From a virus (taxonomy: Duplodnaviria > Caudoviricetes): DNA of 64,000 bases. The translations under genes and the position numbers were made by a program. Shown here in pieces: positions 19,563-63,167 of the stretch (position 1 is the stretch's first letter; every line of letters begins with the position of its first letter). The stretch lies in IMG/VR virus record IMGVR_UViG_2695421015_000001, positions 1 through 64,000 of that record; one strand, 5' to 3'. Under the pieces are notes generated by a model, which did no database searches, was not told the origin of the DNA, and saw only the letters and a list, made by a program, of their open reading frames with translations.

Positions 19563-19629
19563 AGCCGGTCTCCTTGTCGATCCCGGCAGGGGCGCCTGCG
19601 AAGCGCCTCGTCGGGGACGGGTGTTTGAA

Positions 19630-20709
19630 TTACTCTACGTCGTCGTACTCGGTCGGGTCGAACGTCGATCCGAACAGCTTGCCTGCGGCGTTGTAGAGGG
19701 TGTTGGTGTTATCCGCGGACTGGAACCCGAACCACTCCTGCAGGGCCTTGATGGCAGGCTTGGCGTTTTTCAGCGTCGACCGCAGATCATCCAGATCTCT
19801 GCCCAGCTTATCGGCGCGATCCTCCTCGCGCCGGAAGGCGTCGACGTAGGGCGTCAGCCGCTTGACCTCGGTCTCGGCCTCCTCGGCGCGCAGCATGGCA
19901 CCCAACTCCGGACAGCCCATGACGTCATCCGCGCGAGAGCATCCGGGGAAACCGCTATTGCACTTAAACAATTCCTCGGCGGGCAGCGAGCAATAGACGC
20001 AAGGATCTTTCGAGCGCGCCAGCGCGGCGCGCAGCCGGACGTTCTCGGCCTCTGTCTCCTGGCGAGCGTCCTTCAAACCGCGCGCGTAGCCCTTCTCCTC
20101 CTCGGATCGGAGCGCCCGATAGTGATCGGCGCCCAGCGCGTAGAACTCGCGGTAGCTGGCAGTATCTTCGCGGTGATATTGCTCCAGCTGCTCTTCCTGG
20201 CGGCGCACGATGCCCAGCAGGCCGCCTTCGAGGGCATTCAGCTTGCAGCCGGGGATCTCCATCTCGCTGATGCCGAAATGCTCGCGGGCGGCGGCCTCGT
20301 CGGTGAAGACCTCGTCGCAATGAAAGCAGCGCCACGGCATCACGGATAGGCCGGGCAGGGGCGAATGCTTCGGCTTCTGCGCCTGCTTGGCGCGGATGGC
20401 CTCGATCTTGGTCCAGACGCGGGCGAGTTCGGTCTCGCCAGCCGCGTCGACGTCCATATCGTTGGCGCTCGCCAGCGCGTGAAGGGTGACCAGCGTGCCG
20501 CCCAGTTCCTGCATCGGTTCGCCCACCGGGCGATCGAACACGTAGTAGACCAGCTGATACGCTTCGCTCGCCGTGCAGCCGAGCGACTGCACCAACTCCA
20601 GCGCCTCTTCAAGGAAGCGATGGTTGCGTTCGACGCGATCGCGGCAAACCTCCATCGAGAAGCACGCCCGCATCCATTCCCGAACTCGATTCTGATAGGT
20701 CGCTGTCAA
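19630..20709 (-). CDS. phage protein with MazG/NTP-PPase-like N-terminus and zinc-finger segments
   Basis: RFLEEALEL...QELGG; WRCFHCDEVF..AREHF; CVYC; TTG start inferred after GGAGAGG. Confidence 0.6.
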   Translation of the reverse strand: MTATYQNRVREWMRACFSMEVCRDRVERNHRFLEEALELVQSLGCTASEAYQLVYYVFDRPVGEPMQELGGTLVTLHALASANDMDVDAAGETELARVWTKIEAIRAKQAQKPKHSPLPGLSVMPWRCFHCDEVFTDEAAAREHFGISEMEIPGCKLNALEGGLLGIVRRQEEQLEQYHREDTASYREFYALGADHYRALRSEEEKGYARGLKDARQETEAENVRLRAALARSKDPCVYCSLPAEELFKCNSGFPGCSRADDVMGCPELGAMLRAEEAETEVKRLTPYVDAFRREEDRADKLGRDLDDLRSTLKNAKPAIKALQEWFGFQSADNTNTLYNAAGKLFGSTFDPTEYDDVE

Positions 20710-21119
20710 AATCCTCTCCACTTGTTGATAGGGCTCGACGCCTTGTTCTGCGGCGGTGCCTTTTGGAATCCTTGTCCCTTGATGGGCGATCGCTTCGACG
20801 GCTTGAGGCCATAGGCGGCTTTCAGCTTGCGGTCCGCGGTCGACATGATCTTGTTGTCGACCTTGTCCTTGCTCTTTTTGCAGACCGTGCAGCGCACCTG
20901 GCAGTTCTCGGCCGTCGGCTCGCCGCCGAGGCCGTCGGGGTCCATGTGCTCGTAGAAGGTGCCGCCGGGGCGCAGCTCGTTGCCGCAGCCCTCGCATTGC
21001 GGGACGCCGGGGATGTTGGCGACGCCCTCAACGCTGCATCCCTTGCAGCAGCGGCGGAATGCCGCCTTGCGGACGCTCTGCGGAAACTCAGTGCGCTCGT
21101 CACCGCGAAGGCTCGTCAC
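20706..21119 (-). CDS. HNH endonuclease-like protein
   Basis: CEGC...YEHMDPDGLGGEPTAENCQVRCTVC. Confidence 0.8.
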   Translation of the reverse strand: MTSLRGDERTEFPQSVRKAAFRRCCKGCSVEGVANIPGVPQCEGCGNELRPGGTFYEHMDPDGLGGEPTAENCQVRCTVCKKSKDKVDNKIMSTADRKLKAAYGLKPSKRSPIKGQGFQKAPPQNKASSPINKWRGF

Positions 21120-21322
21120 TGGCGCAGCTCCGCCACCTTGACCCCGCCGCCGACGAAGGCAAGGAAGCCGCCGTCGTAGCAGTAGAGGCCAGCCTCCTTG
21201 GCTATCTTGAAGGCGCGATACTTCGCTGCCGACGGCGTCGGAGCCTGAACCGTGACCGTGGAGCCAGCGCATTCGACCTTATAGTATTTGATGTCGAGCG
21301 AGAGTTGTTTGGCGCGCTTCAT
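21116..21322 (-). CDS. hypothetical phage protein
   Basis: Stop/start overlaps with both neighbours (MKRAKQLSLD...). Confidence 0.6.
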   Translation of the reverse strand: MKRAKQLSLDIKYYKVECAGSTVTVQAPTPSAAKYRAFKIAKEAGLYCYDGGFLAFVGGGVKVAELRQ

Positions 21323-21693
21323 TGCTTGAACTCCACGCCGTTCTGGACGCCCCATGCTTCGATGAAGGCCAGCAATTCGTTCATGTCCCTTGAGTTCATT
21401 TTCGATGAACGGCCCTCGTAGGGAATGAAGGTCGAGCCATCGAGGGAGGGCATGAACTCGACCTCCTGGCCGCAGGCATGCATCATCAGGACCTTCCATT
21501 GCTCCTTGGCGTAGAAGCGGCCTTGGTGCTGGTACTGCTCGGCGACCTCGCCGAGCATCGCCCACATCTTTTTGCGCTGGTCGTCGGTGGCGGGCTCGTA
21601 TCGCATCTCGACCATCGTGCCGATCTTCGCCTCGTCGATCATGCGATGGAGGAAGGCACGGTCGCTGTCGTTGGTGATGAGGATGCCGGTCAC
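21319..21693 (-). CDS. ninB: NinB-family recombination protein
   Basis: TDDQRKKMWAMLGEVAEQ...EQWK...SSKMNSRDMNELLAFIEAWG..NGV. Confidence 0.85.
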   Translation of the reverse strand: MTGILITNDSDRAFLHRMIDEAKIGTMVEMRYEPATDDQRKKMWAMLGEVAEQYQHQGRFYAKEQWKVLMMHACGQEVEFMPSLDGSTFIPYEGRSSKMNSRDMNELLAFIEAWGVQNGVEFKQ

Positions 21694-22001
21694 ACAAGCA
21701 CCCATCGATCGCCGTCCAGCTTGATACGGCAGAAGTGACCGGAGACCAGCTCGCCGCTGCTGACGGGCCTGCCGTCTTGGTGGTAGACCGGAAGGCCGTT
21801 CAGGGTAGTCGGGCCGAAGTTGATGTCGTGACGCAATGGAACGATGCCGGGATAGCGGCTGGTGAACTTGAAGAGCGGCTCCGGCAGCGGCTCCATCACC
21901 TTGACCGGCATCAGGCTTGACGCCCGCGCGATCGCGGGCGCCGCGATCAGGCCGGCGAGAACCTTGAGGACTGAGCGGCGAGGGAGGATCAGACTGCTCA
22001 C
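21690..22001 (-). CDS. hypothetical protein with twin-arginine-like N-terminus
   Basis: PRRSVLKVLAGLIAAPAIARA; coupled to neighbours. Confidence 0.6.
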   Translation of the reverse strand: MSSLILPRRSVLKVLAGLIAAPAIARASSLMPVKVMEPLPEPLFKFTSRYPGIVPLRHDINFGPTTLNGLPVYHQDGRPVSSGELVSGHFCRIKLDGDRWVLV

Positions 22002-22198
22002 AGCGTCACCTCCGTCTCATCGATCATCTGCAGCATGCCGTCGACCCTATCGAGCAGGCCTGCGGCCAAAAGATCCTTCGGAGCGGCTTGCAGGTCGCGC
22101 CGCGCGAATTGCAGCGCCACCCGCAAGGCGCCTGACTCCGTCTGGGTCAGACGCTTGCCGTTGATCGTGATCTCGGCTTCATTCAGCTGGCGCGGCAC
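21998..22198 (-). CDS. hypothetical phage protein
   Basis: 66 aa, operon context. Confidence 0.6.
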   Translation of the reverse strand: MPRQLNEAEITINGKRLTQTESGALRVALQFARRDLQAAPKDLLAAGLLDRVDGMLQMIDETEVTL

Positions 22199-22207
22199 GG
22201 GGTCATC

Positions 22208-23130: not shown

Positions 23131-23174
23131 AGTCTTGGTCTCCTTGGTGGATGCCGTCTGCGAAACGGCGGTTG

Positions 23175-23862: not shown

Positions 23863-24360
23863 TCAAAAAGGAATATCGTCGTCCATGTCGTTGTTGGCGA
23901 AGCTCGACTGGCGTGAGCCTGCCCCCGACGACTGGCGAGTGCCGCTACCGAAGTCGCCGCCGCCGTCGTCATCCGAGCGGCGATTGCCGCCGCCATTGCC
24001 GCCGCCATTGCCGTCGCTGAGCATGGTGAGCGTCGAGTTGAAGCCTTGCAGGATGACCTCGGTCGAATATTTTTCGACGCCGCTCTGGTCGGTCCATTTG
24101 CGCGTCTGCAACGCGCCCTGGACGTAAACCTTGGAGCCCTTCTTGAGGTACTTCTCGGCGATCCCCGCCAGACCCTCGTTAAAAATTACGACGCGATGCC
24201 ACTCGGTCTTTTCCTTGCGCTCGCCGGTCTGCTTGTCGCGCCAACTCTCCGACGTTGCGATCGACAGGTTGGCAATCGGCTTGCCGCCTTGCGTGCGACG
24301 GATCTCCGGGTCTTTGCCCAGATTGCCGATCAACTGCACCATGTTCAAACTTCCAGCCAC
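23863..24360 (-). CDS. ssb: single-stranded DNA-binding protein
   Basis: [17 protein letters not shown]...TEWHRVV...Gly-rich linker, ends DDDIPF. Confidence 0.97.
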
Positions 24361-24609
24361 AATGGTCTCCTTGCTTCTCGGACCTGCGAAGTCCGTTTCC
24401 AAAAATAATCCCCGGCCTTACGAGCACCCGGAGTTGCCGCCAAACCGTCCCCGTGCGCCCGGGTGCGGGAGTGAATTGTGCGCGCGATGACAACCTTGGC
24501 CGGTGAAAGCAATCCCTCCCCGAGGGGAGACGAAATGGGGCCCGGAGGTCATCTTCCCGTTGTTCGAGCCGCGCGCTGCCCGTCGTTGCGTCTGCCCCAC
24601 TTCGGATTG

Positions 24610-25854: not shown

Positions 25855-25898
25855 TTTTGGTCTCCTTGTGATCCGAGCCTGCGAAGCCCGGCTGTTGT

Positions 25899-27787: not shown

Positions 27788-27899
27788 GCAAGACGCTCCT
27801 GACCCTGTGTCGAGATGAGCGGGCGCCTGCGAAGCGCCCGCGCAATGCTCGATCAATGGGGTTCACTGTTGGTGGTGGACGACTGGGGTGGTCTCAGTG

Positions 27900-29405: not shown

Positions 29406-29413
29406 CGACGGTA

Positions 29414-35249: not shown

Positions 35250-35330
35250 TTGAACCCCCGCAGGAGTCCTAGACCAACCACCCAAGAGGCGTTCGCAGCG
35301 TCTCTTCCAACATAACCAAGGAGACCAAAC

Positions 35331-38470: not shown

Positions 38471-38592
38471 AGATTTGGTCTCCGTGTTTGTGATAATGAG
38501 TCGCTGCTCCGATTGATGGACGCTGGGATGGTCTCCTTGCAGCCAACCTCTCGGGCACGAGGCGGGAGCTGCGAACTCCCGCCTCACCTTTT

Positions 38593-39194: not shown

Positions 39195-39249
39195 AGTCGT
39201 GGTCTCCTTGTGAATGCCGGCTGCGAACCGGCGGTCGAGGTGGGTGGAT

Positions 39250-39483: not shown

Positions 39484-39535
39484 TGGTGGTCTCCTTGTGA
39501 ATGCCGGCTGCGAACCGGCGGGTGGGTGGCTTGGT

Positions 39536-39941: not shown

Positions 39942-40123
39942 TGTTCGGTCTCCTTGGATTGGCGCCGCTGCGAACGGCGGTTGAGTTGTTCTTCGGCCCA
40001 CGCGAGCGCTCCTTCGTAGAACTCGCGGGGGAGGTCGCCGTCACTGTCGCCGACAGCGCCGGCGAGTTTGGCGTGCAGGGCCTCGATGATGGCTTCGAGG
40101 CGGCGGGTGCTGAGTGAAGCCAT
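39938..40123 (-). CDS. hypothetical protein
   Basis: TGATG coupling; its 3' end runs through the next leader module. Confidence 0.55.
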   Translation of the reverse strand: MASLSTRRLEAIIEALHAKLAGAVGDSDGDLPREFYEGALAWAEEQLNRRSQRRQSKETEQ

Positions 40124-40839: not shown

Positions 40840-41047
40840 GGTGCTGGTCTCCTTGATTGGGGTTGATGCCCTCTGCGAAAGGGCGGTTAGCGATCCGGGT
40901 TCTCTAGCTCGTTGGTGAGGCTTCCGAGCCAAACAGGAGTTGCTGCAGCAACGACGACCGCATCCACGATGCGGGCATCGAAGTGTAGGCAGATTTTTGC
41001 GGCGGCCACGCCGATTAGAAAGCGGGCCACCGGCAATACCATCGCTA

Positions 41048-42342: not shown

Positions 42343-42429
42343 AGTGGTGGTCTCCTTGGTGAATGCGGCCTGCGAAGCCGCGTTGGGGTGGTGGTCGGTA
42401 TTGCCGCGGCGGTTATCCGCCGCGGGTAG

Positions 42430-44634: not shown

Positions 44635-44682
44635 TGATGGTCTCCTTGTAGAGGGCGCTGCGAACGCCCGGTTGGGATTGTA

Positions 44683-46308: not shown

Positions 46309-46352
46309 GTTTGGTCTCCTTGATGTTGGGCCTGCGAAGCCCGGTTGGTGGA

Positions 46353-47219: not shown

Positions 47220-47253
47220 GATGGTCTCCTTGTGATGGGCCTGCGAAGCCCGG

Positions 47254-48612: not shown

Positions 48613-48692
48613 TGAGTTGGTCTCCTTGTGTGTGAACGTGGTGTGGGCGGCGCCTGCGAAGCGCCGCCTTGCTGGCTGGCCTGCGTGGGGAG

Positions 48693-49088: not shown

Positions 49089-49148
49089 GGGTGTGGTCTC
49101 CTTGATGATGGGGAAGGGGGCGCCGCCTGCGAAGCGGCGCCCGGATTG

Positions 49149-49430: not shown

Positions 49431-49510
49431 GGTGGTGGTCTCCTTGATTTTGGTGGGGTGGTGGAAAGCCGCGCGGCGGTCTGCGAAACCGCCGCGCGGG
49501 TCGTTGGTGG

Positions 49511-50539: not shown

Positions 50540-50566
50540 GGATGGTCTCCTTGATGATTGGGTGTT

Positions 50567-52012
50567 TCAGCGCGCTGCGAACGCGGGGGTCCAGGTCGTG
50601 ATTGGCATCTCGAGTTGGTCGGGATGGTGGATGGTGGGGGACGGCTTGCGCGGCAGCGGCTCGTCGGCAGCGGCTTCCGCCGCATTGGCCTCTTCGGTGT
50701 CGAAACCTACGGTGCGGCCGTCGGGCAGATCGACGGTGGCATCGTCGGCGTACCAGTTGCCGGTGACGTCGCACTTGGTCGCATAACTACGGCGCTCATC
50801 TTCGCACCAGTTCTTGGTCCCGTTGAGGGTGATGACCTCGAAGAGATCGTCCGCCGGATAGTTCTTGCCGTTGCTGTCGCAGATGCCGCCGTCGTTTTGG
50901 AACTTCCATTCCGACCAGTAATCGCCGTCGGCCATTGACACCGCGTCGTCTTCCGGCACGCTGATGCCTTCGTCCGAGCAGAAAATGGCGTGACGCTCTT
51001 CGCAATGGCGACACCACGTCGCTTCGAATCGGCGCGAGGTATTGACGCTGCAGGTCTCGTCCTCGTCCACACGCTCCTCGCAACGGTCGCAGGAAATTCT
51101 GTTGCCGTCGGGCGGGCAGATGCCGGTCGGATCGGAGTCGGAGCAGCTGTAGCGGCCATGATGGCGGAGGATCAGGTGCGTTTTCCCGACGTCGAAATCG
51201 CCGACGGAGTCGACGTAGGGGCAAACCCAGCCGCCGCCTTCCTCAATCTTGAGCAGGCGCGCGCCTTCGAGGTCGCCTTCCTTGTAGCCGAGGGCTTTCA
51301 GAAGGGGCTTTAACCGCGCTTCGTCGCCATAGAAACGGGTGAAGATCTTCTTGGCCGGCCAGACGACGCTGCGGGCGGTGATGCGCTTGTCGAAGTGCGA
51401 TGCGTCGTCCCGCTCAAGGTAGGCAACAGCCAGGTCGCCGGCCGCGTAGACCCGAACCGGGTGGATGCTGCTTTCGTAATCCTCCGCATCGTGCGACATG
51501 CAGCTATCCGGACCGTCGAGGTAGACCCGTTCGATCTCGTCTTCGGTGTCGGCGAACCGAACCTCGTTGCTTTCGGTTTCGGCGGCCAGTTCGGTTGCCA
51601 GCCGCGCGATCACGTCGTCGGACAGTACGTCATCGAAGAATCGTTTCAGGTAGGCGCCAGCGCGCATGCGGGTCTGGCGATCTGCCGCGCCCTTCTCCGC
51701 GTCCTCGGTGAAGGCGACATAGCCGCCCTTTTCCATTGACAGGTGCAGGAAGTGTTCGCTGTTGTAACGCTCGCGGAACCAGACCGCGTTGGTCCACGGC
51801 ACCGGCAGGTAGGTGCCATCTTCCATGCGCCCACGTTCTCGCTCGCGCCATTCGGAGCCGTCGACGATGGGGCGGGGCTGGTGCTTCTGCCCGGTTTCGG
51901 TGGTGAGGCTGACGGCCGCGACGGCCGCCATCTCTCCCGTGGGCCAGCGAGTCGGGCCCTCGATCGATCCGACGAATTGCTTGGTGACGATGTTCAGAAC
52001 CTGGAAGTGCAT
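50567..52012 (-). CDS. large hypothetical phage protein with C-terminal CxxC repeats
   Basis: SCM, ARSVVW, RFYG, PYVD; CDRC, CRHC; leader module at 52032. Confidence 0.8.
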   Translation of the reverse strand: MHFQVLNIVTKQFVGSIEGPTRWPTGEMAAVAAVSLTTETGQKHQPRPIVDGSEWRERERGRMEDGTYLPVPWTNAVWFRERYNSEHFLHLSMEKGGYVAFTEDAEKGAADRQTRMRAGAYLKRFFDDVLSDDVIARLATELAAETESNEVRFADTEDEIERVYLDGPDSCMSHDAEDYESSIHPVRVYAAGDLAVAYLERDDASHFDKRITARSVVWPAKKIFTRFYGDEARLKPLLKALGYKEGDLEGARLLKIEEGGGWVCPYVDSVGDFDVGKTHLILRHHGRYSCSDSDPTGICPPDGNRISCDRCEERVDEDETCSVNTSRRFEATWCRHCEERHAIFCSDEGISVPEDDAVSMADGDYWSEWKFQNDGGICDSNGKNYPADDLFEVITLNGTKNWCEDERRSYATKCDVTGNWYADDATVDLPDGRTVGFDTEEANAAEAAADEPLPRKPSPTIHHPDQLEMPITTWTPAFAAR

Positions 52013-52127
52013 AGGTTGGTCTCCTTGAAGTGCCGCCCTGCGAAGGCGGCGTTGGGTTTCAGACATGCAGCATCCGTCCGCGGCGCCTGCGAAGCGCCGC
52101 GGTCGGCAGGTCTTGAGTTGTCGGGGC

Positions 52128-53036: not shown

Positions 53037-53088
53037 GGTTGTTGGTCTCCTTGGTTGCCCCGCTGCGAACGGGGGTTGGGTGAAAGTG

Positions 53089-53301: not shown

Positions 53302-53303
53302 GC

Positions 53304-54199: not shown

Positions 54200-54249
54200 G
54201 ATTTGGTCTCCTTGATTGAAACGGCTCTGCGAAAGCCGGGTGGGTTGGA

Positions 54250-55109: not shown

Positions 55110-55161
55110 GGGTGTGGTCTCCTTGGTTGAAATCCGTCTGCGAAACGGGCGAGGGTGAATA

Positions 55162-55326: not shown

Positions 55327-55329
55327 CGC

Positions 55330-55596: not shown

Positions 55597-55637
55597 GATT
55601 GGTCTCCTTGATTGAGCCGTCTGCGAAACGGCGGTGG

Positions 55638-55874
55638 TTAGTGGGCGTGGACGAAGTTCTCTTTGCTCCAGCGCACGAAGTGACGCTCCTCGCGTCGCTC
55701 CATCGCGCGCCGGGCTTCCTTGAATGGGCAGTGCGGCACCGTGCCGTGGACGCGCCACGGCTCTGCCATCTCCTGCGGGGTACGGTTGGTCTGGCGCCAC
55801 TCTGCAAACAGTTGCGCAACCGCCGAGTGGGGCCGCCACGAGCGGCGGATGTGTCGCATTTCTGAGAACCGCAT
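55638..55874 (-). CDS. hypothetical protein
   Basis: RBS GGAG; MRFSEMRHIRR. Confidence 0.55.
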   Translation of the reverse strand: MRFSEMRHIRRSWRPHSAVAQLFAEWRQTNRTPQEMAEPWRVHGTVPHCPFKEARRAMERREERHFVRWSKENFVHAH

Positions 55875-55879
55875 GGCGT

Positions 55880-56053
55880 TCACTCCGCTGCTTGCTGCAT
55901 CGTGGGCGCGCGGGCGGCAATGATCCGCTCGGCGTCCTTTCGCTGCTGCCATGAAAGCGAAAGGCCCGCGTGGTAGCGGGCCACGATCTCGTCGTTGGTG
56001 AACTCGATCAGGTCGAGGTCTGCGAAGTGCGCGTTGTATCTTGCGCTTTGCAT
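55880..56053 (-). CDS. 57-aa hypothetical protein (below ORF-track cutoff)
   Basis: Leader module at 56086; MQSARYNAHFADLDLIEF. Confidence 0.65.
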   Translation of the reverse strand: MQSARYNAHFADLDLIEFTNDEIVARYHAGLSLSWQQRKDAERIIAARAPTMQQAAE

Positions 56054-56128
56054 CGATGGTCTCCTTGGTTGGATGGAAACGAGGACGCGCTCGCTGCGAA
56101 CGAGCGCGCCCCGTCGGTGGCGGGTTAA

Positions 56129-57271
56129 TCAGATGTGGCAGTCGACGACGGCGAGGCAGGTATCGTCCGGCAGGCCGTCGATCAGGTCAGAGAACTGCTG
56201 GTCCCATGTGTCAGCGTCCTTCTCGTCGGAGACGCAGCCCCACCAGCCCATCGAGCCGCGCTCGTACCACTGACCGTCCTTGACGACGGCGAAGGTCTGC
56301 AACGCGCGGCGTCGCGCCCGGAGGGCAACGTCCTCCGGCGACATGCGGAACATCTTGAGGTCAGCATCGCTGTCGAAGAACGAGAGCATCTCGGCGGCCT
56401 TGAGGTCGACGATCACCGGCTGCGAGTGGAAGGCCTTGCGCACAGGTTCCCATCGATCGCCGCCGGCGGTGACGACGGCGTTATCCGTCGGCATCGCCTC
56501 GAAGCGGGCGCGAACCTCCTCCCACGTCTCGAACGGGCGACCGGCAATGATCGCTGCCGCCTTGGCGTGGGTTTCCAGTGTGGACTTCTCGGCCTCGTCG
56601 CGCATGGCGTCGAAGTCGATCTGGCGCTTGCGGGCGACGTCGCAGTAGCCGACCCGTTCCGGCTCGTTCTTGTTCGTCCATGAGCGTTCGCCCATCTGGA
56701 CGCCGTCGATCAGCGCCTTGGTGCTGTCGGGGATCGGAAGGCGTCGCTCGGTCAGGACCTGGACGTGACGCATGGCCTCGCAGACGTCGCCGCGCAGGCG
56801 GATCATGTCGCTCCACCGGCCGCCGATCTGCCACCAGTCCCATTTCTTTTTCGGGTTGGTCTTGTTGAAGAACCGGTCATCCCGCTCGAATGCGCCGAAA
56901 TAGTCCGTGGCGCACTCGGCCATGGTCTTGTAGCCGACGCCGTGCTTGCGCGCTTCATCAGCCGCCATCTCCTGCTCGACCGCGCCGGCCGGAAGTTCGA
57001 ACTCCTTGCGGGTGTCCCAGCTTGCCTTCTTCTCCGGCTCCTTCGTATAGAACCGCTGATCGTACCGACTGTGGACGCTGCCGTCCGCCAGCACGACGAC
57101 CTGCCTCGGTTTGTTGAACTCCTCCTTGACCTCGTCGGTGACGTCGACGTCGATGACGTATTGGTCATCGGTGCCGGTGCACTCGTACTCGTGCCACGGC
57201 TGGAGGATCGGGGTGAGGGTTTCCCGATCGAGCGCCTTGTCCGAGATAACGAGAACGGTGAAGTGACTCAT
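56129..57271 (-). CDS. Trp-rich hypothetical phage protein
   Basis: MSHFTVLVI...NPKKKWDWWQIGGRW...AVVKDGQWYERGSMGWWG...VVDCHI. Confidence 0.85.
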   Translation of the reverse strand: MSHFTVLVISDKALDRETLTPILQPWHEYECTGTDDQYVIDVDVTDEVKEEFNKPRQVVVLADGSVHSRYDQRFYTKEPEKKASWDTRKEFELPAGAVEQEMAADEARKHGVGYKTMAECATDYFGAFERDDRFFNKTNPKKKWDWWQIGGRWSDMIRLRGDVCEAMRHVQVLTERRLPIPDSTKALIDGVQMGERSWTNKNEPERVGYCDVARKRQIDFDAMRDEAEKSTLETHAKAAAIIAGRPFETWEEVRARFEAMPTDNAVVTAGGDRWEPVRKAFHSQPVIVDLKAAEMLSFFDSDADLKMFRMSPEDVALRARRRALQTFAVVKDGQWYERGSMGWWGCVSDEKDADTWDQQFSDLIDGLPDDTCLAVVDCHI

Positions 57272-57316
57272 AGTGGTGGTCTCCTTGGTCGATTGAGGAC
57301 TGCGATCCTCGTGGCG

Positions 57317-57368
57317 CGATGCGGAAGTGCATCGTGGAGCGCCGCGTGCGGCGCTCGTCGATGAACTC
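57317..57368 (-). promoter_or_regulatory. structured leader type 2, copy A
   Basis: Identical 19-mer GATGCGGAAGTGCATCGTG plus variable hairpin. Confidence 0.7.
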
Positions 57369-57588
57369 AAGCATGGTAGGAGGTGAAGCAGGTCTTGCTG
57401 CAGAACAGTCCGGGGTGGGTGAACTTGCGGCCGCCGTCGGTCTCGGTGGAGTACCGAAACATGGTGTTCTTGTCGGCGGTCTTGCCGCGATACGATCCGC
57501 ACCAGTCGCAGGAGTGCGCTGGAGCGAGGACGCTTTCGCGGTGAAGTTCTTGCCGCGCGAAGGGATCGCGGGAGATCAGGCGGGTCAT
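57367..57588 (-). CDS. zinc-finger-like hypothetical protein
   Basis: CDWCG...FCSKTC..YH. Confidence 0.7.
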   Translation of the reverse strand: MTRLISRDPFARQELHRESVLAPAHSCDWCGSYRGKTADKNTMFRYSTETDGGRKFTHPGLFCSKTCFTSYHA

Positions 57589-57821
57589 TGGCCCCTCCCT
57601 TCGCGATTGAGGCGGGCGACCTCGCGGCGGTAAACGGAGATGCCGGACTCGGGCATCGACAGCTTCGCGCCGCTCGGCGTCGGCAGGTATCCGACATAGC
57701 CGCGCATGTTGAACCAAAGCTGGTCCACGATCTTGCCGTTGAGGATCACGTCGTAGCGCTTCGTGGTCTCCAGCATCTGGCAACCGCGGCGCGTCTCTTT
57801 CAGTTCAAGCTTGAATGGCAT
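57585..57821 (-). CDS. hypothetical phage protein
   Basis: Leader module at 57852. Confidence 0.7.
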   Translation of the reverse strand: MPFKLELKETRRGCQMLETTKRYDVILNGKIVDQLWFNMRGYVGYLPTPSGAKLSMPESGISVYRREVARLNREGRGQ

Positions 57822-57895
57822 GGTTGGTCTCCTTGGTTTGAAAACGAAAGAGCGCGCTCGCTGCGAACGGCGCGCCCGTCGGGGATGGGTTGGTT

Positions 57896-58198
57896 TCAGC
57901 TATGGGTGTAGCCGTCGGGCTCGATGCCGAGCCACATGCCCCATCGGTGGATCATGATGCAGCCGTAGCCGCCGTGCACGGTCTTGCGGAAATTCCGGTA
58001 CTGGATCGACGGCACCTTGACGACGCGATGGGGATTGCGGACCGCGAAGTCAGCGAACTTTTCGGCGTCGTAAGGGTGGCCCTCGAAGTGGCGACGATCT
58101 TGCTCCTGCAGCCGGATCGTCGGTGTCAGCCAGCTTGGGAAGTCGCGGAGGAAGATTCGGAACAGCGCCTCGCGCTGCGCTCGGGTGGTGACGATCAT
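57896..58198 (-). CDS. hypothetical phage protein
   Basis: TRAQREAL...W.GMWLGIEPDGYTHS; leader module at 58218. Confidence 0.75.
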   Translation of the reverse strand: MIVTTRAQREALFRIFLRDFPSWLTPTIRLQEQDRRHFEGHPYDAEKFADFAVRNPHRVVKVPSIQYRNFRKTVHGGYGCIMIHRWGMWLGIEPDGYTHS

Positions 58199-58240
58199 GG
58201 TGGTGGTCTCCTTGAATGCCGTCTGCGAAACGGCGGTGGG

Positions 58241-58591
58241 TTAGTGGTTGATGGTCTCGGAAGCGTCCAGCACTTCCAGCACCTTGGCGGCGCCGATCTG
58301 GTCGATCTTGGTGGCGACGAGCATCTCGGCCGCCTCGCGGTCGGTCAGCTTGGCGTGATGGCCTTTCGCCACCATGTAGCGGACCTTCACGTCATTGAGC
58401 CGGCCGAACACCATGCCGGAGGCATAGTGCGTGAGGGTGTCGGCCTCCTTGCCGAGACGGCTTTGCTGCAACACGAACTTGACCTTGCGGTCGCCGATCG
58501 TGAGCCATGCGACGCGCCCGGTGCGTTCGGACAGCGTGATCTTATGGCCCCGGGGGCGTTTCCCCGGCACCTTGAAGGTGATGGTTGGCAT
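58241..58591 (-). CDS. hypothetical phage protein
   Basis: RBS GAGGG; LTHYASG. Confidence 0.7.
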   Translation of the reverse strand: MPTITFKVPGKRPRGHKITLSERTGRVAWLTIGDRKVKFVLQQSRLGKEADTLTHYASGMVFGRLNDVKVRYMVAKGHHAKLTDREAAEMLVATKIDQIGAAKVLEVLDASETINH

Positions 58592-58602
58592 GGTGCATTC
58601 CC

Positions 58603-59085
58603 TCAAAAGCCGCTGGCGAGTTGATGGGCTTCGGCGTCGGTCTTGCCGTCAAGTTTGTGCTTGGCGTAGGAGCGTTGCCATTTGACCCAGCTGCGGAGTT
58701 CGGCCGCCTCCGCCTCCTTGCAAGCAGACGCGAACACGAACAGCTCGTCGTCACGGCGCGGCTCCCACGCGCTTTGCGCGGCGAACATGCGGACCTTGGA
58801 GATCGCATCGCTCATGGTCATTGGCCTGGAGCCGAGCCCGTTCATCCACAGCGTCTTGCCGTGATGCTCGGTCGCCTTGCCGGGCTCGATGATCTGGTAG
58901 CACCACTCGCCGACCGGGCTCGCGGCCACGATCAGGGTGAGGCCCCATCGGAACTCGATGTGCGGCGCCTGCGCATTGCACAGGAAGTCGATCTTGTTCG
59001 AGAGGTCGAGTTTGGCCTCGTTCTTGTTCGGGCCTTCGCCGACGACGCAGCCGCGGCTTGTTGTGACGGTCTTGGGTTTACGCAT
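58603..59085 (-). CDS. hypothetical phage protein
   Basis: Leader module at 59103. Confidence 0.75.
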   Translation of the reverse strand: MRKPKTVTTSRGCVVGEGPNKNEAKLDLSNKIDFLCNAQAPHIEFRWGLTLIVAASPVGEWCYQIIEPGKATEHHGKTLWMNGLGSRPMTMSDAISKVRMFAAQSAWEPRRDDELFVFASACKEAEAAELRSWVKWQRSYAKHKLDGKTDAEAHQLASGF

Positions 59086-59128
59086 GGTGGTCTCCTTGTG
59101 ATGCGCTCGCTGCGAACGAGCGCGGGTT

Positions 59129-59668
59129 TCAGATGATCGAGCCGTAGCCTTTGCAGTCCGGACACTTGTCCCAGACCGGCGTGATGCCGTCGTCGCCTTT
59201 GCAGGTCTCGATGCCGTTGGATGCGACGTTGCCGAAATGCGTGGCGCAGGTCGGGCAGCCGTGGGTGTCGTTCCAGATCGTGGTCGCCTCGTCCTCGACG
59301 GCGATCAGCGCCGCGCCGTAAGCTTCGGCAGCCTGCTTGGGCGTCTCGAACTTTTCGTCGAGCAGGTCGATGACGTGGGTGGTAGTGGTCTGATCGACGC
59401 CTTCGACGATCGACGTCACTGACAGGGCGGTGAAGAAAGATCCTTCGACGGACAAATCCTCGCCCCACACCCAGCTGCCGGGGTTATCCTCACCGGCATA
59501 GAGCAGCGCGCCGACCGACGCGCCGCAGTCGGTGTACTTGTAGGCTTTGCGGGCGAGCTGCCCGACGTTGTCGGCGTCGTTCGCCTCAAGGATGGCGCGA
59601 AGGTTCTCTTGCGCGGCTTGCCCCATGGCTTTGAGCTCTTCGCCGCGTTCGTATTCGATTTCGTTCAT
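59129..59668 (-). CDS. hypothetical protein with DnaJ-like CxxCxGxG end
   Basis: YKYTDCGA...CPTC...CPDCKGYG; RBS AAGGAGTCC. Confidence 0.75.
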   Translation of the reverse strand: MNEIEYERGEELKAMGQAAQENLRAILEANDADNVGQLARKAYKYTDCGASVGALLYAGEDNPGSWVWGEDLSVEGSFFTALSVTSIVEGVDQTTTTHVIDLLDEKFETPKQAAEAYGAALIAVEDEATTIWNDTHGCPTCATHFGNVASNGIETCKGDDGITPVWDKCPDCKGYGSII

Positions 59669-59677
59669 GGTGGACTC

Positions 59678-60012
59678 CTTGGTTTGCCGATTGACGGCGG
59701 GCATGGGTGAATGAACCCGGGGCAGGCCCCCGGGGGCGGGGCAATAGAACCGGGGCAGGCCCGGGGGCAGGCCTAGAACCCGGGCAGGGAATAGAGGCCC
59801 GGGGGCAGGCCCGGGCAGGGGCAGGGAATAGAGGCCCGGGCAGGGGCAGGGGCCTAGGAACCGGGGCAGGGGCAGGCCCCTAGGCCCGGGCAGGCCCCTA
59901 GGCCATAGGCCCGGGCAGGCCCGGGGGGCAGGAATAGGGCCGAAACGGCCCTATTAGAACCCAAGCCCGAAACCAAACGAGGAGCGCCGCATAGCCCCTT
60001 GCGCGCGGCGAC
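59678..60012 (+). repeat. G-rich TC-free tract 2 (six GGGCAGGG plus shared hairpin)
   Basis: GGGCAGGG at 59782, 59813, 59819, 59838, 59844 and 59864; ATAGGGCCGAAACGGCCCTATT at 59934-59955. Confidence 0.85.
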
Positions 60013-60412
60013 TCGAGATGCGGTCGCGGATCGATCCGGCGTCGGCGAGGCCGCGCTCATGCAAATCGGTCAGCGTCTTGAGCGCGTCGGCGCGCGCCCG
60101 GGTGACGTAGACGGTCAGGGTCCGCTTGACGTGCGGCCCGAGTCCGACGGTCACGACCTGGCCCTCGGCGTTCACGCCATAGGTCCGCGCCTGCGCTCCC
60201 GTCCGGTGGCGGCTGCCGGGGTTGCGAATGTGCAGCGTGGTGACGACCCATCCGAAGCGCTCGGTCTCGTACAGGGTCAGGGTGTGCAGCACGTCGAACG
60301 GCTGCGGCTTGCGCCAGTCGTATTTCTTGGGGTGCTTCGGATATGCGGTGTCGGTCTCCTTGAGGCCGAAGGGCAGGGCGGGCTTGGTCGGCTTGCCGGT
60401 GGGGAACTTCAT
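59954..60412 (-). CDS. hypothetical phage protein
   Basis: Leader module at 60448. Confidence 0.75.
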   Translation of the reverse strand: MKFPTGKPTKPALPFGLKETDTAYPKHPKKYDWRKPQPFDVLHTLTLYETERFGWVVTTLHIRNPGSRHRTGAQARTYGVNAEGQVVTVGLGPHVKRTLTVYVTRARADALKTLTDLHERGLADAGSIRDRISSRRAQGAMRRSSFGFGLGF

Positions 60413-60567
60413 GGGTGGTCTCCTTGCGATGAATGTTGAAATGGAAGGCGCGCCCCGCTGCGAACGGGGCGCGCGCTGTCAGTCTCTCCGTGTGCCCAAC
60501 GTCACCATTGGGCATTCGCTCAGCGTAGTTCTGAGGCGCGGTCTCCTGTAGAGAGGCTGAAAGGTTG

Positions 60568-60816
60568 TCAGCGCGGATCGTAGAGCGGCTTGCTGTTGGG
60601 CTTCCACTCGGCGCCCGGCCAGACGCGGCCGTTGTAACTGACGTGGGCAATGATCTTGCCGGCGTCGTCGATGATCGTGCCGCCGGTGAACGGCGCGAGA
60701 CTCGAGCCGCAACCGGCGCCGAGGTCTCCGGTGTCGATGAAGCGACGCACCCTCTCGGATGCGTCGGCGTAGCTGGCGACCTTGACGGCGCGACTGCGGG
60801 TGAGATGAACTCGCAT
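60568..60816 (-). CDS. hypothetical phage protein
   Basis: RBS GGAGGG; IAHVSYNGRVW. Confidence 0.7.
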   Translation of the reverse strand: MRVHLTRSRAVKVASYADASERVRRFIDTGDLGAGCGSSLAPFTGGTIIDDAGKIIAHVSYNGRVWPGAEWKPNSKPLYDPR

Positions 60817-60819
60817 CGG

Positions 60820-61008
60820 TCAGCCCTCCATCCCGCAAGCGCGGTAGAAGAGGCTGGGCTTGAATTTGCCATTTGCGACGGCGCATTCGATTGCGAAGCG
60901 GCGCACGGTGTCGCGCCACTGGTCGAGTTGCTTCCGATCTTGCGTGTTGGGCTTGCCCTGCTTCAGCACGGCGGCGATGAACTGGAAGTGAGATTGGCTG
61001 ATGGACAT
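60820..61008 (-). CDS. hypothetical phage protein
   Basis: RBS GGAGG; HFQFIAAVL...N.KF...FYRACG. Confidence 0.7.
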   Translation of the reverse strand: MSISQSHFQFIAAVLKQGKPNTQDRKQLDQWRDTVRRFAIECAVANGKFKPSLFYRACGMEG

Positions 61009-61019
61009 GCTCGCCTCCC

Positions 61020-61181
61020 TCACTGCACGTTGACGCGAGGATGATCGGCGAGGCCGCGCCGCGTCAGGAACTCCTGATCGACAACGTAGCGGGTGTAGGG
61101 CTGCGGGCGATCTTCGACGTATTCGCGGAAGCGGCGGAGTTCATCTTGGCGGATCAGCTTGAGGATTTGCTTGCGTGACAT
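61020..61181 (-). CDS. 53-aa protein MSRKQILKLIR... (below ORF-track cutoff)
   Basis: Leader module at 61201 with AAGGAGACCACCATG. Confidence 0.7.
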   Translation of the reverse strand: MSRKQILKLIRQDELRRFREYVEDRPQPYTRYVVDQEFLTRRGLADHPRVNVQ

Positions 61182-61248
61182 GGTGGTCTCCTTTGGTTGG
61201 GGCCGCTGCGAACGGCCGGTGAAAAACAGGTGATGGGTTTGGTCGGGA

Positions 61249-61545
61249 TCAGGCGGAGAACACGACGGTTTCGCCGTCGATGGTGTGTGGCACCTTGCGG
61301 GTGACGAGTGCGGTGGCTGCGTCCAGCGGGAGCTTCCACGTCGCTGCGACGACGTTGGCGAGGTTCTTGCGATCCTTCGGGAAGCTGGCGCCGTTGATCG
61401 CCCAAGCGATCAGGCCGGGAGCGTAGACGAACGGCGACGATTGGAGGCGATAGGTCTTGGTGGCGGGGTAGCTCTGGATGAAGGTCTTGGCGGCGCGCTT
61501 GCTGCGGGTGTCGGCGAGGACAGCGGAAATTGCAGTCTTGGACAT
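61249..61545 (-). CDS. hypothetical phage protein
   Basis: AAGGAGACCACCATG; type-2 leader. Confidence 0.75.
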   Translation of the reverse strand: MSKTAISAVLADTRSKRAAKTFIQSYPATKTYRLQSSPFVYAPGLIAWAINGASFPKDRKNLANVVAATWKLPLDAATALVTRKVPHTIDGETVVFSA

Positions 61546-61562
61546 GGTGGTCTCCTTGGACT

Positions 61563-61614
61563 GATGCGGAAGTGCATCGTGACGCGGCGACATGCGCCGC
61601 GCTGCGATGGGCTC
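61563..61614 (-). promoter_or_regulatory. structured leader type 2, copy B
   Basis: Same 19-mer plus variable hairpin, 5 nt from the RBS. Confidence 0.7.
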
Positions 61615-61617
61615 CGA

Positions 61618-61920
61618 TCAGTCGCGTACCGGCCAGCCGCGCTCGGCGGCGAGCTTCTTGGCTTGGTCGATGACATCCATCGAGGGCAGGCGTCCTTCGA
61701 GGCATACGCAGAGCGCGACGCCGGCAGCCGGCGTATGCAGGTGGCCGCGCTCTTTCGTGACGGCGACGGGCCGTGTGTCGGCGATGCCGACAACCTTCTC
61801 CTTCTCGATCACGAGAATGTCCCCGGTCTCGACCGGGTACTCGCCGTCGAAGGCGAAGTGAATGCCGGTCTGACAGGCATCGTAGGCGTCGCCGCTGGTG
61901 GGGAATGTGTGGGTGCTCAT
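61618..61920 (-). CDS. hypothetical phage protein
   Basis: AYDACQ...GDILVIEKEKVVGIADT.PVAVT...GHLH; leader module at 61943. Confidence 0.75.
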   Translation of the reverse strand: MSTHTFPTSGDAYDACQTGIHFAFDGEYPVETGDILVIEKEKVVGIADTRPVAVTKERGHLHTPAAGVALCVCLEGRLPSMDVIDQAKKLAAERGWPVRD

Positions 61921-61970
61921 GGTGACGGTCTCCTTGGGTTGACGTTCTGCGAAAACGATGGGTGAGGGGA

Positions 61971-62276
61971 TCAGACGTATTCGATGGCGACGACGACGCC
62001 GGTGGTCATGAAGATTTCGGCGGCGTGGGCGCAGGCGATCTCCATGTCGGGGACGACCTCGCCGGCGACGACCAGCTTGATCGCCTTGCGCTCGGCCATG
62101 TCGATGCCGGTGCCGATCGCGTCGAGCAGGTTGGTCGCGTAGTAGGCGCTGGTCTCGGTCTTGGCGCCCTTGAAGTTGACGATGTACTCGCCGTCGACCG
62201 ACTTGATGGTCATGCCGTGCTTGGCCAGGATCGCGCGGGCTTGGTGGATCGTGTAGTTGGTTCTGGTTCCAGCCAT
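61971..62276 (-). CDS. hypothetical phage protein
   Basis: AAGGAGACCACCATG; type-2 leader. Confidence 0.75.
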   Translation of the reverse strand: MAGTRTNYTIHQARAILAKHGMTIKSVDGEYIVNFKGAKTETSAYYATNLLDAIGTGIDMAERKAIKLVVAGEVVPDMEIACAHAAEIFMTTGVVVAIEYV

Positions 62277-62292
62277 GGTGGTCTCCTTGGGT

Positions 62293-62344
62293 GATGCGGA
62301 AGTGCATCGTGGGACGGCGACATGCGCCGTCCGTCGATGAACTC
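62293..62344 (-). promoter_or_regulatory. structured leader type 2, copy C
   Basis: Same 19-mer plus variable hairpin, 4 nt from the RBS. Confidence 0.7.
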
Positions 62345-62347
62345 GGA

Positions 62348-62563
62348 TCAGTCGATGGTCTTGAAGCCGTGGCGGGCGGCCGCCGTCACGTCGCCGGTCT
62401 TGGCCATGCCGGACAGGTGCAGGCCGAACACCGCAGTGAAGCGGCCGTCGCGATTGCAGACGACCAGCGGCATCATCTGGTCGAGGCCCGTGGTCGCGAG
62501 TGCCTTCATCAGGTTCGCTTCGGTGGCGTAGCTCTTGGCGTTGTCGATATCGAGTATGCTCAT
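62348..62563 (-). CDS. hypothetical phage protein
   Basis: KSYATEANL.KAL...GRFTAVF. Confidence 0.7.
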   Translation of the reverse strand: MSILDIDNAKSYATEANLMKALATTGLDQMMPLVVCNRDGRFTAVFGLHLSGMAKTGDVTAAARHGFKTID

Positions 62564-62574
62564 GGCGGTCACTC

Positions 62575-62643
62575 TCACTTGCCGTTGCGGTAGCGCTGGA
62601 GTTCGAGCTTGCGGATCAGGGCGATGATTTGCTTGCGTGACAT
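62575..62643 (-). CDS. 22-aa basic peptide MSRKQIIALIRKLELQRYRNGK
   Basis: Has its own full leader module at 62680; paralogous to 61020-61181. Confidence 0.6.
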   Translation of the reverse strand: MSRKQIIALIRKLELQRYRNGK

Positions 62644-62726
62644 GGTGTGGTCTCCTTGATGGTTGGTGGTGGAATGAAAAGGCCCCGCTGCGAACGGGGC
62701 CTGTCGGGGATGGGATGGGGATTGGA

Positions 62727-63092
62727 TCAGCCGCGGCCGCGACCGCACTTCATCTTGCGCTTGCCGCCCTTGGCCTTGCCCTTTGTCGAGCGATAGCCCT
62801 TGCCGCTGTCCATCTCGCTCGCCCAGATCGCGTCATCGACCCGCACATGCTGCCTTTCGATGGCGTCAAACACGCGATAGCAGGCGTCAGAGAACTCGAG
62901 GTCCAGGTCGCGCAGCCTATCGAGTGCGGCGTCCCGGGCGTCGATATCCTTGTAAGTCTCGCAGGGCATCGCCTTGATGGCGCGGGCGGCGGCGAGGGAA
63001 GCGACCTCGCCGGCCTTCGTGGCTGCGCGGAAGGCGGCGTTCATCTTGGTTTCGGCTTTCTTGGCGGTGGCAATGATGGTCTGGACGTTCAT
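62727..63092 (-). CDS. hypothetical protein with basic C-terminal tail
   Basis: Leader module at 63125; ends KGKAKGGKRKMKCGRGRG. Confidence 0.7.
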   Translation of the reverse strand: MNVQTIIATAKKAETKMNAAFRAATKAGEVASLAAARAIKAMPCETYKDIDARDAALDRLRDLDLEFSDACYRVFDAIERQHVRVDDAIWASEMDSGKGYRSTKGKAKGGKRKMKCGRGRG

Positions 63093-63167
63093 GGGTGGTC
63101 TCCTTGAGTTGCAGGCATGAAAAAGGCCCGCTGCGAATGGGGCCGGTGATGGTCGGTGGTGGTGGGG

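Follow-up and report, generated by a model that had tools for sequence, protein, structure and literature searches.

Phage early genes are usually viewed as being co-ordinated by promoters, antiterminators and a few translational repressors. The lambda boxB hairpin carries a five-nucleotide GNRA-like loop and has boxA as its partner; it is present as a single copy in each early operon, close to the promoter, and is read by the arginine-rich protein N; the thrS operator is a single autoregulatory site on one Escherichia coli gene, read by its own synthetase. In T4, according to a review (Uzan and Miller 2010, PMC3014915), RegB cuts the extended early Shine-Dalgarno motif GGAGRAYARAA and RegA represses about 30 early mRNAs. 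T4-type phages also carry PeSL elements, described in another report as a strong sigma-70-like promoter with a stem-loop that is an effective terminator (Arbiol et al. 2010, PMC2839356). The nearest printed arrangement that we found to the one presented here is that of the start-associated sequences (SAS) and extended SAS (ESAS) of Cluster K mycobacteriophages, whose function is left open, with a host or phage reader proposed, in the original description (Pope et al. 2011, PMC3203893). Here we analysed a stretch of 64,000 nucleotides (nt), positions 1 to 64,000 of the IMG/VR virus record IMGVR_UViG_2695421015_000001 (Caudoviricetes), referred to below as the window; the element is a roughly 100-kb prophage of myovirus type integrated at a tRNA-Gln gene. 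A two-part leader module, a hairpin with the loop TTCGCAG followed by an extended ribosome-binding site (RBS), tags a phage gene class in this element, namely the leftward early operons and not the whole prophage. Tentatively, and at somewhat less than an even chance, we read it as a leader operator hairpin beside the extended RBS that would be recognised by a probably phage-encoded factor, which would switch translation or mRNA fate of the tagged class. Our literature searches, on which this statement rests, found no published description of a TTCGCAG leader module.

Read in the mRNA sense, the module opens with a G+C-rich inverted repeat that encloses TTCGCAG; an A/C-rich spacer leads from it to the word (C)AAGGAGACC, and a second, short A/C-rich spacer leads on to the start codon. 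The 64-kb window contains 46 occurrences of CTGCGAA/TTCGCAG, compared with 15.26 +/- 3.73 in 100 shuffles, none of which reached 46. An earlier note, made from the letters of this DNA alone, had listed 33 minus-strand copies, and all 33 coordinates are correct, each being the 5' foot (in plus coordinates) of a hairpin around this word. The plus-strand copy that it had placed at 35284-35306, before a plus-strand gene, was also recovered. Its stem length of 4-12 pairs holds, as an unbroken stem with G-U allowed, for 31 of the 33 minus-strand copies; the copies at 57861 and 63131 are imperfect, the former needing a bulged A for pairing and the latter having a mismatched closing pair. The RBS described behind every hairpin is AAGGAGACC in all copies except 27827, which has a different AGGAG site, and the tandem copies 52087 and 52038 use one common AAGGAGACC site. 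Additionally, the two hairpins with a six-nucleotide TCGCAG loop (57295-57310 and 63772-63791) are real, and the region from 1 to 18 kb of the window is free of copies, both as reported.

For the analysis of stem and loop, 96 loop-plus-site modules were collected from five sources, 90 of them with at least four pairs; they were gathered by the loop word, and copies within and between related phages share descent. Stems range from 4 to 15 pairs, five being the commonest length (29/90) and 4-6 pairs being found in 55/90, and the closing pairs of the 90 modules are G-C in 36, U-A in 26, C-G in 26, and A-U and U-G in one each. Among 88 distinct 19-mers from eight sources, 84.7% of cells pair, compared with 42.2 +/- 2.1% in shuffles (0/500), slid partners pair in 36-42% of cells, and all six stem pairs change on both sides. 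Because the stems pair far above shuffles and both sides of every pair change, the hairpin structure is under selection, which bears out the co-varying stems that had been described by eye. In 15 orthologous gene pairs (35-72% amino-acid identity), loop and RBS are kept; the stems differ and are still complementary. A fair count of the loop, made under one hairpin-plus-site rule, gives 81 exact copies out of 82 in three prophages, the lone variant being TTCGCAT. In the alignment, all seven loop columns are invariant in 88/88 rows, partly by construction, as rows were chosen by the loop word.

These data bear on the possibility that the hairpins are passive mRNA structures with no dedicated reader, which would shield transcripts from exonucleases or insulate the RBS, the loop being kept for folding. 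Such a role would suit the presence of hairpins in every longer intercistronic gap, within A/C-rich unstructured leaders, and the late-gene hairpins of the same prophage, which carry other loops, such as TTCG. In the ViennaRNA fold, as in that of the terminator scan, the heptamer forms U-G and U-A pairs that close a CGC triloop, so part of the apparent loop may be stem; UUCGCAG may adopt this capped form or stay open over all 7 nt. However, a passive structure would permit compensatory U-A/U-G changes, yet the loops are all but one exact on freely varying stems, and the fixation of all seven letters, whichever fold applies, is more than a folding role alone would require. Furthermore, the short copies fold weakly (-8.3 kcal/mol, z = -0.39, for a 51-nt segment), and strict co-occurrence with one extended RBS is left unexplained. 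We consider a purely passive role distinctly unlikely.

Within the prophage, the module is restricted to two leftward early operons and to two solitary copies, one at 35292 and the other at window coordinate 112748, counted on past the window. The term "prophage-wide", used in the earlier note, was wrong, as the late genes and most of the rightward operon are without the module. The leftward array (37.8-63.7 kb) comprises 26 kb and about 53 mostly ORFan genes, and the int-proximal leftward operon contains a weak excisionase-like open reading frame (ORF) and genes for SSB, a 414-amino-acid (aa) protein and a RecE/YqaJ-like exonuclease. With crude gene calls, based on third-position G+C and Shine-Dalgarno rules, TTCGCAG was counted in junctions between non-overlapping genes: 25/35 in the array, 4/7 in the int-proximal operon, 1/23 in the late region and 0/8 at 65-78 kb. 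The rightward early operon, with GcrA-like, RuvC-like and primase-helicase genes, has the word in three of six junctions, with a true module at one only (35292). None of the 17 array junctions with overlapping or nearly abutting genes carries a module. Single modules also precede isolated genes within other operons, at 35292 and 112748.

The module is specific to the phage, with no host targets. In the 9.09-Mb genome, TTCGCAG occurs 1471 times, in 64 cases between arms that form a stem of four pairs or more. Thirty-three of these stemmed words lie in the window (19596-62688), 31 of them with AAGGAGACC within 70 nt downstream; one of the 33, at 35185, sits inside a gene and looks like chance. 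The 31 stemmed words elsewhere represent 2.2% of the 1,438 outside words, against a hand-estimated chance of ~2.1% for four pairs at this G+C, and none of these 31 is followed by AAGGAGACC. The word AAGGAGACC itself occurs 120 times in the genome, 41 of these at 18-66 kb in window coordinates. The motif is therefore not equally common before host genes, a possibility that the earlier note had raised against itself: beyond the prophage, hairpins arise at the rate expected by chance. When a covariance model was made from 88 copies, 28 of its 30 matches at E <= 0.1 fell inside C1:3034424-3077534, only 150 of 6991 candidates having been scored. The module does not belong to a known Rfam family either, as no Rfam match falls on any hairpin: at gathering scores the sole match in the window is a tRNA, and in E-value mode the sole match in 38000-64000 is RF03076 (E = 0.13), which is unrelated and off the hairpins. 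Total invariance of the loop on free stems, together with the lack of host copies, argues for a sequence-specific reader whose main targets would be the phage's own messages.

In a wider search, the pattern TTCGCAG-N(8-38)-AAGGAGACC gave 34 matches in this genome and at most two in each of 300 other genomes of the family. Among 300 genomes of the genus, the same pattern gave 23 matches in G435 and 27 in G463, both from related prophages in two other species, and at most two in the rest. The IMG/VR proviruses G598 (111,990 bp) and G599 correspond to the G435/G463 prophages. In another provirus, G600 (105,413 bp), a shorter pattern ending in AAGGAGAC matched 18 times, and the metagenomic phage contigs G596 and G597 have 6 and 4 pattern matches, respectively. 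A scan of 185,579 species genomes, IMG/VR and JGI metagenomes with a stricter pattern brought in a Bradyrhizobium sp. record with 8 modules in 8 kb, a contig from a metagenome-assembled genome (L156) with 7 hairpins in 8 kb, whose Rhodocyclaceae label derives from binning only, and two soil contigs with three modules each. Contig L156 (DAIDAU010000514.1, 68.5 kb) also encodes homologues of six prophage proteins, five from the array plus the 201-aa neighbour described below; either the host range extends beyond one genus or the contig is mis-binned. No near-identical phage record was found when 39000-63999 was compared by megablast with 50,697 records, which returned one 183-nt match, in a methyltransferase gene. 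Because the genome, IMG/VR and metagenome scans gave these few records, the module family is rare, soil-associated and centred on one alphaproteobacterial genus.

The position of the hairpin relative to the RBS is also preferred. From stem end to GGAG, 7-9 nt is the commonest distance (43/90; median 9), and the start codon follows GGAG by 6-9 nt in 75/85; the stem lies at a broad range of distances from the upstream stop, mostly 2-31 nt (median 11). The 3' end of the host 16S rRNA (...GGATCACCTCCTTT) cannot pair with the ACC that follows AAGGAG, so ribosome pairing does not explain the RBS extension. Two partners for the loop were considered and rejected: rRNA, as the 16S gene lacks CTGCGAA, and an antisense RNA, as loop-complementary words outside modules sit in unrelated, non-conserved places in the three prophages. 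A homologue of a 380-aa array protein is encoded at 37 viral loci, and either motif was detected only in the three of this family; the other 34 show no enriched loop and no AAGGAGACC. The loop and the extended RBS are invariant and co-occurring.

Orientation follows transcription, as had been proposed from the plus-strand copy at 35292; three plus-strand copies within a minus-strand region of G463 agree. The accompanying argument, that G-U wobbles fall on the sense strand, fails: under one strict rule, the 90 modules contain 5 G-T/T-G and 4 C-A/A-C internal mismatches. In the comparison of G435 (L134-L136) with G600 (L251-L252), 3 of 10 homology blocks begin 7-13 nt 5' of a loop, and block starts just 5' of hairpins indicate joint inheritance of hairpin, RBS and gene as a unit. 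The hairpin thus goes with the gene downstream of it. One G435/G600 block ends 12 nt 5' of a loop, the two prophages differing by block replacements. Taken together, gene-direction dependence, the preferred Shine-Dalgarno distance, inheritance with the downstream gene and the isolated single modules point to an mRNA signal at the level of the gene, and so not of the operon or of replication. The full module at window coordinate 112748 (+; L003:8748), beyond the window in the late region, lies before a 284-aa ORFan, and G435 (L133:7248) and G599 each have one late-region module, before non-orthologous genes. Because these late-region modules of three prophages precede non-orthologous genes, they suggest a portable hairpin-site-gene cassette.

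Inheritance as a unit could also be expected if single-stranded DNA (ssDNA) were the active form and the hairpin a site for a recombinase, nuclease or primase, for example at PeSL-like or attC-like borders of mobile cassettes. We regard this as improbable. The joints at the 5' foot of the hairpin, the partial re-ordering of array genes between phages and the late-region modules would be in keeping with it, as would the wobble tally, which does not favour RNA. The phage also encodes SSB, a RecE-like exonuclease, a RuvC-like resolvase and a primase-helicase, and its conserved 201-aa neighbour has weak GIY-YIG/T5orf172 leads. Against this, orientation flips locally with gene direction, which fits transcription and not replication, most stems have only 4-6 bp, and exchange inside the loop would break stem pairing; the observed joints lie 5' of the hairpin, not within it, and mosaic joints are expected at gene borders anyway. 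No integron-type integrase, HUH or Y1 transposase family appeared in the Pfam/PHROGs scans, and a simple E. coli-type consensus scan of 56000-64000 found no sigma-70-like promoter (0 vs 0.9 expected). The alternatives of an ssDNA hairpin promoter or an attC-like site, less favoured in the earlier note, are weakened by the short stems, the empty promoter scan and conservation of the loop instead of the stem base. Integron attC sites have conserved core boxes at the stem base and a variable centre, with an IntI-type integrase nearby. Identity with attC was rejected, as here the centre is conserved and the stem base variable, and the only integrase is the tRNA-adjacent phage integrase of phrog_1.

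For the operator hairpin with a dedicated factor, which we tentatively prefer, the following sequence of events can be proposed. The G+C-rich hairpin would present the invariant UUCGCAG on the mRNAs of the leftward early operons, with the extended Shine-Dalgarno (C)AAGGAGACC, the A/C-rich spacer and the start codon following, usually 7-9 nt on. A sequence-specific factor, probably a phage RNA-binding protein or nuclease, would dock on the loop beside the RBS and set translation initiation or mRNA fate of each tagged cistron, so that about 35 recombination and accessory early genes would be switched as one class, akin to T4 RegA/RegB. The earlier note had likewise called for a loop-specific factor; gene direction, RBS distance, co-variation, phage confinement and absence from Rfam and from host genes fit its cis-acting half, an early-mRNA signal. 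RNA as the active form, the trans-acting factor and its direction of action are parts that we infer from sequence.

Several observations weigh against this proposal. When 70 proteins of the window and flanks were scanned with Pfam and 50 protein scans were made with PHROGs, none of the 120 scans matched an RNA-binding family, and most array proteins matched nothing. By BLAST, two module-bearing metagenomic phages have no early protein in common with this prophage, an awkward finding if the reader is phage-encoded and conserved. Roughly one copy in three is 12-53 nt away from GGAG, the RNA-strand wobble signal is absent (5 vs 4 internal mismatches, as given above), a AAGGAGACC-type site stands without a hairpin in several junctions (array 5/27), and one copy is a hairpin without the site. 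A search for RNA sequencing runs, made with window 46000-55999, listed none.

In the same scans, the sole RNA-enzyme match was an RNA-ligase-like segment of a late 1033-aa head protein, and no member of the RegA or RegB families was matched. The families that were matched include an integrase, a weak excisionase-like protein, SSB, a RecE/YqaJ-like exonuclease, a CI-like helix-turn-helix (HTH) protein, GcrA-like, RuvC-like and primase-helicase proteins, a small HNH protein, an AAA ATPase, two methyltransferases and a 'peptidase' family. PHROG matches of the 1033-aa head-region protein (L002:483-3584, +; window coordinates 84483-87584) are of NUDIX, RNA-ligase-like and head-protease-like types. 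Divergent from the array, and at its start, lies a gene for a 201-aa basic protein (L001:1021-1626, +; window coordinates 65021-65626), conserved in G435, G463, L156 and L197. This protein has a weak Atlas match to T5orf172/GIY-YIG (0.82; TM 0.43-0.49); its confident AlphaFold2 model (pLDDT 81.3) gave no match at E <= 0.001 with Foldseek against the PDB, and with VIA-align the best Z was 5.2, GIY-YIG chains reaching only Z 4.1-4.7. A 160-aa core protein gave no usable Atlas match.

The promoter-proximal end of the array encodes small basic proteins and a basic micro-ORF. The conserved micro-ORF, of 22-24 aa and ending in YR(N/H)GK, lies just after a promoter-proximal hairpin and overlaps the next gene; copies lie at window 62575-62643 (-), L135:2388-2456, L139:10836-10904 and L156:3475-3549, and a 53-aa paralogue lies at 61020-61181. 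As a universal reader the micro-ORF was rejected, being present in four sources and not found in the examined fragments of V596, V597 and G600; in the last, 28 kb with 18 modules were examined.

Some copies show features of transcription terminators. Long stems (8-15 pairs) accompany long pyrimidine-rich spacers, and a simple scan of 56-64 kb rated two TTCGCAG hairpins as terminator-like (62702-62680 and 60474-60448). The promoter-proximal copies 62680-62702 and 63125-63143, together with counterparts in L139, L156 and G435, have a G+C stem followed by TTTT(T)CAT; they look like true intrinsic terminators, and this resemblance is kept in relatives. A T-rich tail, defined as at least four T in the 8 nt after the stem, is present in 7/90 modules, and intrinsic-terminator identity was rejected for the family as a whole, only this minority having a U-tract. 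Within the operator proposal, the long-stem, pyrimidine-tailed copies would probably also attenuate transcription.

In an antitermination model, the hairpins would serve as loading sites of the nut/boxB kind and, in part, as conditional terminators. On nascent RNA, a phage antiterminator would bind the loop and keep RNA polymerase termination-resistant along the 25-kb array, transcription otherwise stopping at the promoter-proximal copies. The conserved G+C stems with T-rich tails, the two scan hits, the pyrimidine-rich tails of long-stem copies and the small basic proteins with the micro-ORF at the promoter-proximal end would all be compatible with it. However, the T-rich tail is confined to seven modules, at least 25 copies occur per operon and are tied to RBSs instead of operon starts, and single modules precede isolated genes in the rightward and late operons. 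Furthermore, no common, boxA-like word appears in the variable, C/A-rich sequence 5' of the hairpins, and the micro-ORF was not found in the 28 kb of G600 examined, which has 18 modules. Antitermination is unlikely in our view.

The loop also resembles that of a tRNA, and the hairpin could mimic the anticodon arm of tRNA-Ala(CGC), acting as a thrS-type translational operator or as a decoy for an anticodon nuclease or modification enzyme. The anticodon loop of the host tRNA-Ala(CGC) genes (G000:C1:8783927-8784002 and 7055496-7055576) is TTCGCAA and agrees with UUCGCAG at 6/7 positions, with U33 and a purine at 37, and the commonest stem has the 5 bp of such an arm. In addition, the thrS operator hairpin sits just 5' of the Shine-Dalgarno, as the hairpin does here. 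By our own estimate, however, a random heptamer matches one of ~45 anticodon loops at 6/7 or better ~6% of the time, and the stems vary from 4 to 15 bp. Moreover, a G at position 38 is, to our knowledge, unusual for an anticodon loop, and alanyl-tRNA synthetase does not read the anticodon. We consider such mimicry very improbable. In a more elaborate version, about 35 anticodon-arm mimics would hijack or titrate a tRNA-binding protein, both controlling early translation and blunting tRNA-targeting defence; this would be a long shot to a similar degree. Mimicry of the T-arm was rejected: the tRNA T-loop reads TTCRANY, with A at position 58, and the present loop has C in that place. The true T-arms in L277 and L278 read TTCGAAT or TTCGAGT; they had been considered as analogous hairpins and are actually T-arms of a tRNA gene cluster.

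The individual copies are given here in window coordinates, the RBS being AAGGAGACC unless stated; all are on the minus strand except one. The first, at 19591..19607 (5-bp stem, TTCGCAG; AAGGAGACC 19567-19575), precedes the weak excisionase-like ORF 19260-19562 (phrog_66 E=2.4e-4). It is followed by 23153..23169 (5 bp; RBS 23137-23145; start codon 23130), by 24379..24395 (5 bp; RBS 24364-24372) before the SSB gene 23863-24360 (PF00436 E=2.3e-36), and by 25873..25891 (6 bp, one G-U; RBS 25859-25867) before the gene of the 414-aa protein (phrog_3657). The hairpin at 27819..27841 (8 bp), before the RecE/YqaJ-like exonuclease gene, is the one without AAGGAGACC and with another AGGAG site. The window's only plus-strand module lies at 35284..35306 (+; 8 bp, one G-U), with its RBS at 35318-35326 and a start codon at 35331.

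At the end of the array, 38522-38587 (-) forms a conserved non-coding element, kept in five phages, in which a 12-bp TTCGCAG hairpin (38557..38587) is followed by a second co-varying hairpin (38522..38543) that displays AAGGAGACCATCC in its loop and has no start codon behind it. The AAGGAGACCATCC-displaying hairpin could be a decoy or standby site for a reader of the ribosome-binding word. From there, 5-bp hairpins lie at 39216..39232 (RBS 39201-39209), 39503..39519 (RBS 39488-39496), 39963..39979 (RBS 39947-39955), 40868..40884 (RBS 40846-40854), 42365..42381 (RBS 42349-42357; before a 293-aa protein, phrog_11021) and 44653..44669 (RBS 44639-44647; before the gene of a 674-aa AAA ATPase), and 4-bp hairpins at 46328..46342 (RBS 46313-46321) and 47237..47251 (RBS 47223-47231). 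Long spacers follow the hairpins at 48646..48668 (8 bp; pyrimidine-rich spacer; RBS 48619-48627), before a DUF4942 methyltransferase gene, 49118..49142 (9 bp; RBS 49095-49103) and 49469..49499 (12 bp; RBS 49437-49445). The next copies are 50571..50585 (4 bp; RBS 50544-50552) and the tandem pair 52032..52050 (6 bp; RBS 52018-52026) and 52078..52102 (9 bp), the latter 5' of the former. They are followed by 53058..53074 (5 bp; RBS 53044-53052), 54222..54238 (5 bp; RBS 54205-54213), 55134..55148 (4 bp; RBS 55116-55124) and 55616..55632 (5 bp; RBS 55601-55609).

Towards the promoter-proximal end, the hairpin at 56082..56112 (12 bp, two G-U; long spacer; RBS 56058-56066) has a paralogue with a bulged A and a T-rich tail at 57852..57878 (limits by eye; RBS 57826-57834). 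Further copies are found at 58218..58234 (5 bp; RBS 58205-58213), 59103..59123 (7 bp; RBS 59089-59097), 60448..60474 (10 bp; C/T-rich tail, terminator-like in the simple scan; RBS 60417-60425), 61201..61217 (5 bp; RBS 61185-61193), before the 53-aa basic protein, and 61943..61957 (4 bp; RBS 61927-61935). The terminator-like copy at 62680..62702 (8 bp, then TTTTCATT; RBS 62649-62657) precedes the 22-aa micro-ORF at 62575-62643, and that at 63125..63143, with the mismatched closing pair, is followed by TTTTTCATG and is also terminator-like (RBS 63097-63105). The variants with the TCGCAG loop have 5 bp at 57295..57310 (RBS 57278-57286) and 7 bp at 63772..63791, the latter within the leader that precedes the array's first gene. 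At 57318-57333, 61563-61578 and 62293-62308 (-), AAGGAGACC stands behind another conserved leader, which ends in a GATGC/GCATC hairpin with the loop ACTTCC.

In the surrounding prophage, the tRNA-Gln gene (17907-17980, -) adjoins the integrase gene (18092-19510; phrog_1 E=6e-22), which encodes the sole integrase found, and a CI-like HTH protein is encoded at 28236-28925. A homologue of the GcrA cell-cycle regulator (30370-30870, +; PF07750 E=1.2e-19) adjoins the RuvC-like gene. Past the window, terminase, portal, sheath-like and tape-measure genes follow on the plus strand; the right end of the prophage (about 117-120 kb) is placed only where the genes that it has in common with G435 and G463 stop.

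The sharing of a two-part label by about 35 cistrons, and by the sets in relatives with 35-72% identical proteins, is the signature of a dedicated post-transcriptional regulon. If its reader is found, the system would represent a RegA/RegB-like class switch for temperate phages of alphaproteobacteria and would offer a compact, orthogonal hairpin-and-protein pair for gene control in rhizobia. The module would then also be a practical marker of the true starts of small ORFan genes.

Compared with described systems, the module shares with lambda boxB a small early-mRNA hairpin whose loop, not stem, would be read and is lineage-specific. Unlike lambda nut, it has a 7-nt loop, no boxA-like word and at least 25 copies per operon, each beside an RBS; lambda-type nut identity was rejected on the 7-nt TTCGCAG in 88/88 aligned copies and on the copy at 25/35 array junctions. 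The thrS operator is similar in having its hairpin directly 5' of the Shine-Dalgarno and in the resemblance to an anticodon loop, but about 35 sites occur per phage here, and the 6/7 likeness to a tRNA may be chance. RNase III sites of the T7 early type comprise about two turns of double-stranded RNA, and identity with them was rejected because the stems are too short, 4-6 pairs in 55/90 and 15 at the longest.

With T4 RegB/RegA (PMC3014915), the module shares an early mRNA class with a common signal in the initiation region, T4 middle and late messages escaping. The T4 proteins differ in needing no hairpin, structure in fact protecting against RegB, according to the same review, and the extension here is ACC(A) and not A-rich. 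The PeSL elements (PMC2839356) are likewise repeated stem-loop cassettes between many small, non-essential early genes with shuffling at borders; unlike them, the present array has no promoter-like sites in 56-64 kb, and 83/90 hairpins lack a T-rich tail. The SAS resemble the module most closely (PMC3203893): they are phage-specific, asymmetric and invariant, contain AGGAG, extend past the 16S pairing and lie a few nucleotides before mostly ATG starts of non-structural genes only, in one orientation and with no copies in the host. About half of them have an inverted repeat just upstream, which recalls the hairpin here. They differ in their word, the 13-bp GGGATAGGAGCCC at 3-7 bp before starts instead of AAGGAGACC, and the ESAS, in the same description, have conserved 17-bp arms for which RNA pairing is unsupported and a DNA-binding protein is suggested. 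In the module described here, the arms vary and co-vary and the loop is conserved, so that, set against the ESAS, the conserved and variable parts are reversed, in phages of a different type and from a different host phylum.

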